In this document: positions 12,476 to 13,969 of the stretch, piece after piece
How positions within the stretch are numbered: position 1 is the stretch's first letter
How the letters are laid out: each line of letters opens with the position of its first letter
NCBI GenBank assembly: GCA_919901915.1
Contig: CAKKQB010000013.1
Location: 64,192 to 128,191 of the forward strand
Length of the DNA: 64,000 nucleotides
DNA from: Omnitrophica bacterium GWA2_41_15
GTDB taxonomy: Bacteria > Omnitrophota > Gorgyraeia > Gygaellales > Profunditerraquicolaceae
Reading direction: 5' to 3'
Program-made: the position numbers and the translations under genes
The notes under the pieces: generated by a model
Database searches by the model: none
Seen by the model: only the letters and a program-made list of their open reading frames with translations
What the model was told of the DNA's origin: nothing

Positions 12476-13969
12476 TTATCTCTTCCTGAGCTCTTCTAAC
12501 GCCTTTGCCGCGGGAAAATAACCTTTGTCAACTTTTAATGCCTGCTCATAACAATACCTTGCTTGAGCCAAATCCCCTTTTTCCCGATAAACCTTACCCA
12601 GATTACACCAGACATGCGGCTGGTTGGGATTAATCATTAAATTTACCCAGGAGTAACCTATTGCCTGCTCTCTCTGGCCCAGGCAATAGTATGTGCCGGC
12701 TAAATTATTATAGGCAAGATACCCATCGGGAAAATTCCTGATATTGGTTTCCCAATAAGTAATAATATTACTATATTCGTAATTACGTTTTATAGTCAAG
12801 GCAGTATAAGAACCTAAGAATAAAGTAAGCGCCGTGAGAGCCAAAATTCTAAAAAGCGCTCTACGCGCGTTACTCTTATTAATAACCTCCCAAGATTTTA
12901 AAAACAAGGCCGCGACAATAAGAGAAAAACCCGCTGAAGGCAGATAAAGGTATCTTTCAGCGATAATATTACAAATCGGAATAATATTAGAATACGGCGC
13001 GTAAGCCACAAAAAACCACATTATCCCGAAAGACACGGGCTTTAGAAATTTTCTTGACCTAAAAAATAAAAATGGAACTAAACACAAAAGCGGGAGTCCT
13101 AAAAAAAAGGCAGGAGTAAACTTCATGATATTAACGGTATTATAGGCAAAGGGATGGTACAAGCCCCGATGTAAAGGTAAAAATAAGATTTTTAGATAAT
13201 AAACCCATGCCTTAACAATAACCACTAAGTAACTTAAACCTCGGTAATGAAAAATACGATGCGCGAATTGATTCCTATTTACAAAAAACACGCAAATAAA
13301 GAGCCCGGCAATTGCCAACGCGGAAAATAATACTAACCGGCTGATTCCTTTTATTTTTTTTGTTTTATCCTGCACTTCCCGAAAAAACAAATCATAGCAA
13401 ACGAACATAACAGGTAACATAACCGCGGAATTTCCGGAAAAAATACAAAGCACGAAAATAATAAACGCTAAAACAAGATAAAAAATATGCTTATTCCGCG
13501 TGACTTGGCTCGATTGGACATAAAAAATCATCGCGGCAATAAAAAAAAGGCTGGAAAAAGCATACGGCCCGCCGGAAATCCAACTTACTGCTTCAGTATG
13601 GATAGGGTGTATCGCGAAAATAAGGCTGGCTAAAAAAGACAGCGCTGTATTCTTAAATATAACATTGCAAAGAACAAAAAGCAGGAGCGCGCAGCCTATA
13701 TGAATTAATACATTAAACAAATGATACCCAAAAGGGTTACTGCCTGATATCGCCCAATTAAAAACCAGCGTTATCTCACTAAGCACGCCTAATCGAAGGC
13801 TGAAATGCCTGGAAAAAAATTCCCGCAGATTATGGATAAGAGGATTATTTAAAATTGCGGCATAATCATCAATGAGAAAATCGCCATTTAAAGAATTCTT
13901 ATAAATTAGAAAAGTAACTACGGCAAGAACTACAAGTAATATATAATTGAGCGCTTTATTAAATTTCAT
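12476..13969 (-). CDS. TMTC/PMT-like GT-C family membrane glycosyltransferase with C-terminal TPR repeats
   Basis: 497 aa; ~11 TM helices; loop-1 motif FLIDDYAAILNNP (DD..NP) typical of PMT_2/DUF1736; C-terminal TPR (LGKVYREKGDLAQARYCYEQALKVD). Confidence 0.65.
   Translation of the reverse strand: MKFNKALNYILLVVLAVVTFLIYKNSLNGDFLIDDYAAILNNPLIHNLREFFSRHFSLRLGVLSEITLVFNWAISGSNPFGYHLFNVLIHIGCALLLFVLCNVIFKNTALSFLASLIFAIHPIHTEAVSWISGGPYAFSSLFFIAAMIFYVQSSQVTRNKHIFYLVLAFIIFVLCIFSGNSAVMLPVMFVCYDLFFREVQDKTKKIKGISRLVLFSALAIAGLFICVFFVNRNQFAHRIFHYRGLSYLVVIVKAWVYYLKILFLPLHRGLYHPFAYNTVNIMKFTPAFFLGLPLLCLVPFLFFRSRKFLKPVSFGIMWFFVAYAPYSNIIPICNIIAERYLYLPSAGFSLIVAALFLKSWEVINKSNARRALFRILALTALTLFLGSYTALTIKRNYEYSNIITYWETNIRNFPDGYLAYNNLAGTYYCLGQREQAIGYSWVNLMINPNQPHVWCNLGKVYREKGDLAQARYCYEQALKVDKGYFPAAKALEELRKR

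Follow-up and report, generated by a model that had tools for sequence, protein, structure and literature searches.

A candidate TfpW-like pilin glycosyltransferase of TMTC-like descent encoded directly past the major pilin gene in Omnitrophota

We analysed a 64,000-nucleotide stretch of DNA from Omnitrophica bacterium GWA2_41_15 (assembly GCA_919901915.1, contig CAKKQB010000013.1, positions 64,192 to 128,191), which is called the window below and which carries a type IV pilus gene cluster; coordinates given without a locus name are positions in it. Within that cluster lies a 497-amino acid (aa) open reading frame (ORF; 12476–13969, minus strand) that encodes a putative membrane glycosyltransferase of the GT-C type with C-terminal tetratricopeptide repeats (TPRs), here called the GT gene and GT protein. 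On balance, our comparative analysis favors the idea that this gene encodes a TfpW-like pilin O-glycosyltransferase, that is, an inner-membrane GT-C pilin accessory enzyme of TMTC-like descent. Across Omnitrophota the GT gene is the first gene past the major pilin gene, and only a terminator hairpin lies between the two. In the handful of organisms studied so far, pilin glycosylation governs susceptibility to phages, recognition by the immune system and the assembly of pili, and to our knowledge two types of enzyme that perform it have been described, the WaaL-like TfpO/PglL proteins and the GT-C protein TfpW. The Omnitrophota are ultra-small, possibly host-attached groundwater bacteria.

Conserved gene order past pilA

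Loci for comparison were drawn from one genome per GTDB species, from metagenome contigs and from contigs that encode specific orthologues of the GT protein, and the pilus proteins of the window were mapped onto them; thirteen orthologous loci have upstream sequence and are therefore informative. Twelve of the thirteen (L001–L005, L007, L011, L080, L081, L083, L085 and L086) have the gene order PilB-PilC-small pilin-pilA-GT, and where the sequence runs on 3' of the GT gene it continues into genes for minor pilins, PilMN and PilO. Beyond the pilus cluster the neighbouring genes vary from genome to genome, and in L003, where minor pilin genes are missing from the interval that runs from the GT gene to PilMN, the pilA-terminator-GT arrangement is retained. 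The spacer between pilA and the GT gene is about 85–130 bp long and contains a strong hairpin and T-run in 12 of 12 orthologous loci. These hairpins share a GGCTGACTTTTC...stem and the T-run, and compensatory changes are found in the stems (GGCTGAC/GTCAGCC, GGCCGAC/GTCGGCC, GGCTGGC/GCCAGCC and CTGGTC/GACCAG). In the window the GT gene lies between the minor pilin genes (10130–12367) and the major pilin genes (14737–15617), just as an initial annotation of this DNA had placed it. That annotation also proposed that co-occurrence of the family with type IV pilus loci be examined; the orthologue clade is not randomly spread with respect to such loci, since 12 of the 13 have the gene directly past pilA and several unrelated clades of the family are also found by pilA.

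The latter are more distant relatives with canonical motifs (below), and those adjacent to pilA fall into at least four clades: L036, L047, L050, L060, L062 and L070 (Acidobacteriota), L016 and L030. L036 and L047 (Acidobacteriota, Terriglobia; ~7058–11929) have the order pilB-pilT-pilC-pilS-pilR-GT-pilA-GT. In L050, L060 and L070, likewise from Terriglobia, the glycosyltransferase gene adjoins a pilA array in convergent orientation, in L062 the nearest pilA is about 1.7 kb away, and in L030 pilA is directly 5' of the glycosyltransferase gene. The canonical YYRP, xD, KE and ERxxY motifs are retained in these relatives near pilin genes. Genes that immediately flank family members are pilin-like in 6 of 140 cases, versus 8 of 790 for the remaining genes of those loci (one-sided Fisher p=0.011; the background is taken from the same pilus loci, which makes the test conservative in that respect, and the test ignores relatedness).

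Locus L016 (Omnitrophota) has a glycosylation island between pilA copies (1867–12385 of that locus), which includes genes for an unassigned 503-aa membrane protein, two GT-C/TPR proteins, a YfhO-family GT-C protein and a GT2-methyltransferase fusion. Many members of the wider family stand in tandem paralogue arrays. Rows of six to seven GT-C/TPR paralogues with no pilus genes nearby are present in L009 (CP070807, Omnitrophota; 96–14000) and L015 (12–17100), and these tandem arrays suggest large sets of acceptor-specific protein glycosyltransferases.

Architecture of the GT protein

Pfam and NCBIfam searches with the whole GT protein return C-terminal TPRs only. TPR_1, TPR_2, TPR_8, TPR_12 and TPR_17 all score above the Pfam cut-offs over aa ~400–497, so the repeats noticed in the initial annotation are borne out, and in a structure model of the protein the TPR helices occupy residues 402–496. 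Many residues of this domain are invariant among the orthologues. The membrane domain (aa 1–399) matches no Pfam model, even at E≤10; PDB sequence searches with the whole protein and with a whole-family profile find TPR proteins only, and with a membrane profile from which the TPRs had been left out no solved structure is matched at E≤10. A direct Pfam or NCBIfam family label for this domain was rejected, as there is no qualifying match. A GT-C core fold was found for it, a fold that also matches ArnT, AftA, AftB and AftD, and NCBIfam shows a faint ArnT match (E 0.26). Neither Pfam nor NCBIfam finds a Wzy_C/O-antigen-ligase domain in the protein.

Hydropathy and the positive-inside rule predict 11 transmembrane (TM) helices and place the N-terminus on the cytoplasmic side. 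In this predicted topology the short Lys/Arg-rich loops are all cytoplasmic and the conserved motifs are all periplasmic. The long loop between TM7 and TM8 (residues 231–285) contains a hydrophobic helix at 245–263.

Four of the periplasmic loops contain conserved motifs. The loop 1 motif, F31-L-I-D34-D35-...-N42-P43, is the DD..NP motif of the initial annotation, and it is conserved across an alignment of 74 family members in which D35 is invariant and positions 34 and 42 are D and N in 73/74 and 63/74, respectively. Loop 2 has H121-P-I-H-T-E126, the TM7-TM8 loop has Y258-x6-P265 (Y258 in 72 and P265 in all 74 family members) and loop 5 has E338-R339-x-x-Y342-L-P-S345 (ERYLYLPS). D34, HPIHTE, Y258, ER and Y342 are nearly invariant across family members of many phyla. 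Among 85 orthologues, which are 46–75% identical to the GT protein of the window, D34, D35, H83, E126, P265, E338 and R339 are invariant, and this clade has invariant polar residues of its own in loops 4 and 5 (K253, Y257, H272, S327, N328 and N334).

Relationship to the PMT and TMTC families

The closest relatives of the GT protein are all from Candidatus Omnitrophota, and the orthologue clade stands apart from the rest, with scores falling from 397 bits to 176 bits at its edge. The superfamily defined by the membrane domain is very large, 66,191 clusters (at 50% identity) at E≤1e-3 and 27,532 at E≤1e-10, and it is essentially unannotated, its members usually being labelled "tetratricopeptide repeat protein". 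The initial annotation had assigned the GT protein to PMT_2/DUF1736. The profile search does not uphold this, as the window protein has no Pfam match at E≤10 in its membrane domain and so no gathering-score match to PMT_2 (PF13231) or TMTC_DUF1736 (PF08409), and for the 85 orthologues neither PMT_2 nor DUF1736 is among the matches listed (the best 25 of 46 families). When the membrane domains of the 74 family members were scanned singly, on the other hand, 15 matched PMT_2, six TMTC_DUF1736 and three PMT (E≤0.01), and the L036 protein at 9917–11929 scores above the PMT_2 gathering score. The relatives that match these models were found at phmmer E values of 1e-22 to 1e-45, and bacterial relatives at 25–30% identity match TMTC_DUF1736 and carry YYRP, RxD and KE. 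The kinship of the GT protein with PMT/TMTC is therefore transitive, since it is these family members and not the window protein that match those models; as judged by sequence comparison, it is distant yet real.

TMTC1–4 are animal cadherin-specific O-mannosyltransferases of the GT-C/PMT clan, and TMTC proteins are defined by 11 TM helices, a lumenal DUF1736 loop between TM7 and TM8 with a hydrophobic non-membrane helix, and motifs M1–M7 (PMC7801869, Eisenhaber 2021). The GT protein has in common with them an 11-TM GT-C domain, C-terminal TPRs on the non-cytoplasmic side, DD in loop EL1, ERxxY in loop EL5 and a TM7-TM8 loop that is long and includes a hydrophobic helix outside the membrane. 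Motifs M1 and M7 are thus kept, as D34-D35 and E338-R339-x-x-Y342. It differs from them in having far fewer TPRs, in lacking M2 (SHKSYRP/YRP), M3 (RxD) and M4 (KE(T/Q)xxT) as well as any DUF1736/PMT_2 match, and presumably in using a bacterial polyprenyl-phosphate donor instead of dolichyl-phosphate-mannose. The M5 DW is not seen in EL4, and of the M6 PxxP region (TM9) there is one conserved proline before EL5 (P325, in 72/74 family members), both as judged against the published motifs. The "PMT/TMTC-like GT-C glycosyltransferase with TPRs" of the initial annotation thus stands as regards the GT-C fold and a distant kinship, but three of the seven TMTC motifs are gone. Relative to the PMT family proper (yeast Pmt1/2/4 and actinobacterial Pmt; GT39), TPRs replace the MIR domain, there is no PMT match, and identity is about 9–12%.

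In TMTC models M2, M3 and M4 are assigned to mannose, phosphate and metal binding (PMC7801869). The wider bacterial family keeps DD, yYRP, sgRxD, sKE and AERxLY, and KE is present in 44 of the 55 family members that are neither orthologous nor pilin-adjacent. The only sign that the GT protein might use a lipid-phosphate-sugar donor is its ERxxY motif, a putative phosphate-binding motif. From the pattern of conserved residues we read the changed donor/metal site as probably rebuilt, not decayed, a reading that leaves room for altered or lost activity.

Comparison with known pilin glycosylation enzymes

TfpW of Pseudomonas aeruginosa group IV strains (Pa5196/PA7) is a 646-aa GT-C protein whose N-terminus is cytoplasmic and which has 11 TM helices. 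A DDX motif in its periplasmic loop 1 is essential, loop 4 has Y-x6-PF-x7-P, and the C-terminal TPR domain is periplasmic; its gene is directly 3' of pilA, and it puts alpha-1,5-D-arabinofuranose (D-Araf) on pilin Ser/Thr residues. In pilin-accessory cassettes of this sort a Rho-independent terminator past pilA damps expression of the accessory gene (PMC11841053). The GT protein of the window resembles TfpW in its approximately 11 TM helices, cytoplasmic N-terminus, DD(X) in loop 1 and periplasmic C-terminal TPR domain, and in Y-x6-P in periplasmic loop 4, after whose proline the spacing to the next one is P-x7-P here and PF-x7-P in TfpW (the second proline of the P-x7-P is found only in the orthologue clade). 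The two also share the pilin-terminator-accessory cassette, although in the window a toxin-antitoxin (TA) pair intervenes. The differences are that the GT protein is shorter (497 versus 646 aa) and has only about three TPRs, that it comes from Omnitrophota and TfpW from Proteobacteria, and that it appears to descend from a TMTC/PMT_2-like family.

TfpO/PilO and PglL are also membrane enzymes that glycosylate pilin Ser/Thr residues, and tfpO is likewise directly past pilA. They belong, however, to an unrelated family (Wzy_C/O-antigen ligase-like) and move preassembled oligosaccharides from undecaprenyl diphosphate, whereas the GT protein is of the GT-C type. Our literature search for TMTC-like, GT-C or O-mannosylation enzymes connected with type IV pilins found the TfpW work only. 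The initial annotation had considered a TMTC-like enzyme here to be a route to pilin modification unlike those known, but it overlooked TfpW; a GT-C pilin glycosylation route is already known, since TfpW has the same architecture and gene position.

Proposed function and its alternatives

A TfpW-like GT protein would take a sugar from a polyprenyl-phosphate carrier on the periplasmic leaflet and transfer it to Ser/Thr hydroxyls of PilA while the N-terminal helix of PilA still anchors it in the inner membrane. Docking of the pilin would fall to the TPR domain, possibly via the pilin's C-terminal ...TQGSG[FYW] tail. In PilA orthologues this tail is conserved as WSSA..TQGSG[FYW], with one invariant Ser, and it is a candidate site of pilin recognition or sugar acceptance. 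Expression of the GT gene by read-through of the terminator would keep the enzyme sub-stoichiometric to pilin. The sugar need not be mannose, because other residues stand in this clade in place of the TMTC donor/metal motifs (YRP, RxD and KE), and no D-Araf genes (DprE1/DprE2) were seen in the window or in the related loci examined. Glycosylation by TfpO and TfpW guards against pilus-specific phages, and by analogy with them the glycan may alter the pilus surface in a way that allows evasion of such phages, or it may affect pilus assembly or stability.

Several observations weigh against this proposal. Pilin modification is something that we infer from gene position, and the likeness to TfpW is to its published description. 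About 60 of the 71 wider-family loci are not near pilus genes, and even within the orthologue clade L006 is an exception, a clear clade member that is a few kb beyond a different type IV pilus cluster and not by pilA. In the window itself the gap between the GT gene and pilA is about 770 bp and contains the TA pair. No polyprenyl-phosphate sugar synthase or flippase gene was found within the cluster in any orthologous locus, the sole GT2 gene near an orthologous cluster being about 7 kb off in L080. Finally, in the window protein and all 85 orthologues the YRP of M2 is gone, the RxD of M3 has become SGGxY and the KE of M4 has become GN, so that activity or donor may be altered or lost. The candidate pilin glycosylase of the initial annotation is well supported by comparative genomics, but not as a new route, and its glycosylation activity is deduced.

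Motif loss of this kind would fit a pilus accessory protein with lost or changed catalysis, a TfpY-like pilin chaperone or adaptor that holds PilA or hands it to the assembly machine. Not only are three sugar/phosphate/metal motifs missing from the whole orthologue clade and donor-pathway genes absent nearby, but the TPR conservation is unusually strong, and non-enzymatic pilin accessory proteins are known to occupy the same gene position (PMC11841053). We nevertheless consider such a protein unlikely, as none of the 85 orthologues, with identities as low as 46%, departs from DD, HPIHTE, E338 or R339, which is unexpected for a pseudo-enzyme. R339 and Y342 correspond to the ERxxY motif of lipid-phosphate binding, and the clade-specific invariant residues K253, H272, N328 and N334 suggest an active site that has been rebuilt rather than one that has decayed.

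If the protein is an active O-glycosyltransferase, its acceptor might be something other than the major pilin, such as the minor pilins, parts of the pilus machine or periplasmic proteins, with the gene's location reflecting co-regulation only. The minor pilin genes are, after all, directly 3' of the GT gene in the window and in most orthologous loci, and a family of 66,191 clusters that is mostly not pilus-linked and that includes arrays of six to seven paralogues implies many acceptors. It is pilA-terminator-GT that is the conserved unit, however, and it persists in L003, where there are no minor pilin genes at that place; the Acidobacteriota relatives moreover flank pilA itself, and we therefore think an acceptor other than PilA quite improbable. 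Least probable is an unrelated ArnT- or YfhO-like envelope transferase that acts on lipid A, a polysaccharide or a teichoic acid-like polymer and lies among the pilus genes by chance, an option already raised in the initial annotation and in keeping with the ArnT, AftA, AftB and AftD fold matches and the faint NCBIfam ArnT match, but at odds with a place past pilA that is kept in 12/13 loci despite differing outer flanks and with a TPR protein-docking domain as is usual for TMTC and TfpW, enzymes that modify proteins.

The pilus cluster of the window

The type IV pilus genes around the GT gene are all on the minus strand (Table 1). Their order is PilC, a small pilin-like gene, two pilA genes, the TA pair, the GT gene and three pilin-like genes, and beyond these minor pilin genes come a PilM-PilN fusion, a PilO-like gene, a 162-aa gene, a receiver-domain protein, a PAS-histidine kinase-PilZ protein and PilB. 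The three-minor-pilin set is also present in L083 and L085. An identical GT protein with the same neighbours is encoded on ~95-kb contigs of two separate groundwater assemblies.

Table 1. Positions of the GT gene, its domains and neighbouring features in the window
Feature	Position	Strand	Basis
GT-C/TPR gene, 497 aa, candidate pilin accessory glycosyltransferase	12476..13969	-	ORF
GT-C membrane domain, aa 1-399 (11 TM helices predicted, N-terminus inside, C-terminus outside)	12773..13969	-	Hydropathy and positive-inside rule
Codons D34-D35, predicted GT-C catalytic DD motif, periplasmic loop 1	13865..13870	-	Conservation
TPR domain at the C-terminus (aa 400-497), predicted periplasmic, six helices, ~3 TPRs	12476..12772	-	Pfam
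PilC/GspF platform protein	16072..17331	-	NCBIfam
Major pilin pilA copy 1, putative acceptor	15201..15617	-	N_methyl/prepilin motif
Major pilin pilA copy 2, 134 aa, putative acceptor	14737..15141	-	N_methyl/prepilin motif, gene calls
TA pair: PemK/MazF toxin (14123-14455) and DUF2281-like antitoxin (14440-14634)	14123..14634	-	Pfam
Intrinsic-terminator hairpin and T-run, ancestral pilA terminator	14049..14104	-	RNAfold, -22.1 kcal/mol
ACACGGATA direct-repeat array between terminator and GT ATG	13989..14043	-	Repeat scan
GC-rich hairpin directly past GT stop codon; tail not T-rich, role uncertain	12426..12446	-	Terminator-like scan and RNAfold
Three pilin-like (minor pilin) genes 3' of GT gene	10130..12367	-	ORFs, Pfam, NCBIfam
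PilM-PilN fusion	8256..9980	-	Pfam PilM_2; orthologues also match PilN
PilB/T2SSE assembly ATPase with MshEN domain	2402..4114	-	Pfam

The region between pilA and the GT gene has a more complex history in the window than elsewhere. A perfect 464-bp tandem duplication (14714–15177 is identical to 15178–15641) has given rise to two identical pilA genes, and the TA pair sits between pilA and pilA's ancestral terminator; the hairpin is retained and is now 3' of the toxin gene. No TA pair is present at the equivalent position in any of the orthologous loci. The pilA duplication and the TA pair are both present in two independent assemblies, which makes a one-off assembly artefact unlikely. Most simply, the second pilA copy and the TA pair would both have entered the stretch that separates pilA from its terminator.

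There are 33 matches to ACACGGATA with one or no mismatch in the window, versus eight expected. Arrays of it with a period of 10–12 bp are found on the minus strand at five places in the pilus locus (8212–8254, 13989–14043, 14694–14734, 15180–15198 and 15636–15644), often directly past stop codons. Each pilA copy is bordered on both sides by these repeats, and the TA pair is bordered by similar 33-nt arrays (14692–14724 and 14011–14043, 88% identical), which hints that it arrived by repeat-mediated insertion. The arrays could be binding sites for a transcription factor or a repeat element specific to this genome. The array 5' of the GT gene was rejected as a conserved regulatory site of the cassette, since the orthologous loci do not have it. 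The initial annotation had given the GT gene a promoter of its own with a cluster of this motif; the array is indeed there, but a scan of the spacer (13970–14122) for consensus matches finds no sigma-70-like site, so that such a promoter is unsupported, and the ancestral pilA terminator is present instead.

The small pilin-like gene 5' of pilA (15651–16057, minus strand) is frameshifted, with its N-terminal 81 aa and its C-terminal part, which has the conserved ...LLDPFMNRY...GYEGW, in different frames. Its orthologues are single ORFs of 126–143 aa (131–137 aa in three that were aligned), and the frameshift could reflect a pseudogene, a homopolymer sequencing error or slippage. The histidine kinase by the pilus genes (4133–6085, minus strand) has a C-terminal PilZ domain. 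A published account lists PilZ and MshEN among the cyclic di-GMP receptor domains, and since the kinase has the former and PilB the latter, control of the window pilus by cyclic di-GMP is suggested. A few kb from the pilus cluster is a gene for a DUF5615 protein (21899–22276, minus strand). DUF5615 proteins are PIN-like putative toxins, so that this gene may be a second toxin-antitoxin-type element.

Significance

What stands out here is the phylogenetic reach of the arrangement, a likely substrate for part of an unannotated family and a remodelled active site; the route itself is in kind known from TfpW. If the GT protein is a TfpW-like pilin glycosyltransferase, pilA-terminator-GT-C/TPR cassettes would reach far beyond the Proteobacteria, to the Omnitrophota and Acidobacteriota, and one branch of a huge unannotated family (~66,000 clusters) would have a concrete acceptor. 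Bacterial relatives of the animal TMTC O-mannosyltransferases would also be tied to an adhesive-fibre substrate, and the remodelled active site would offer nature's own test of which GT-C motifs donor choice requires. More tentatively, the pilin-linked proteins may together represent a distinct, undescribed TMTC-like GT-C/TPR clade dedicated to type IV pilins, canonical in Acidobacteriota and with a rebuilt donor/metal site in its Omnitrophota branch. Were there such a dedicated clade, its Omnitrophota members would work with another donor or by a mechanism independent of metal, and substrate-specific TMTC-type O-glycosylation of an adhesive fibre would be ancient, bacterial and mechanistically parallel to the O-mannosylation of animal cadherins.

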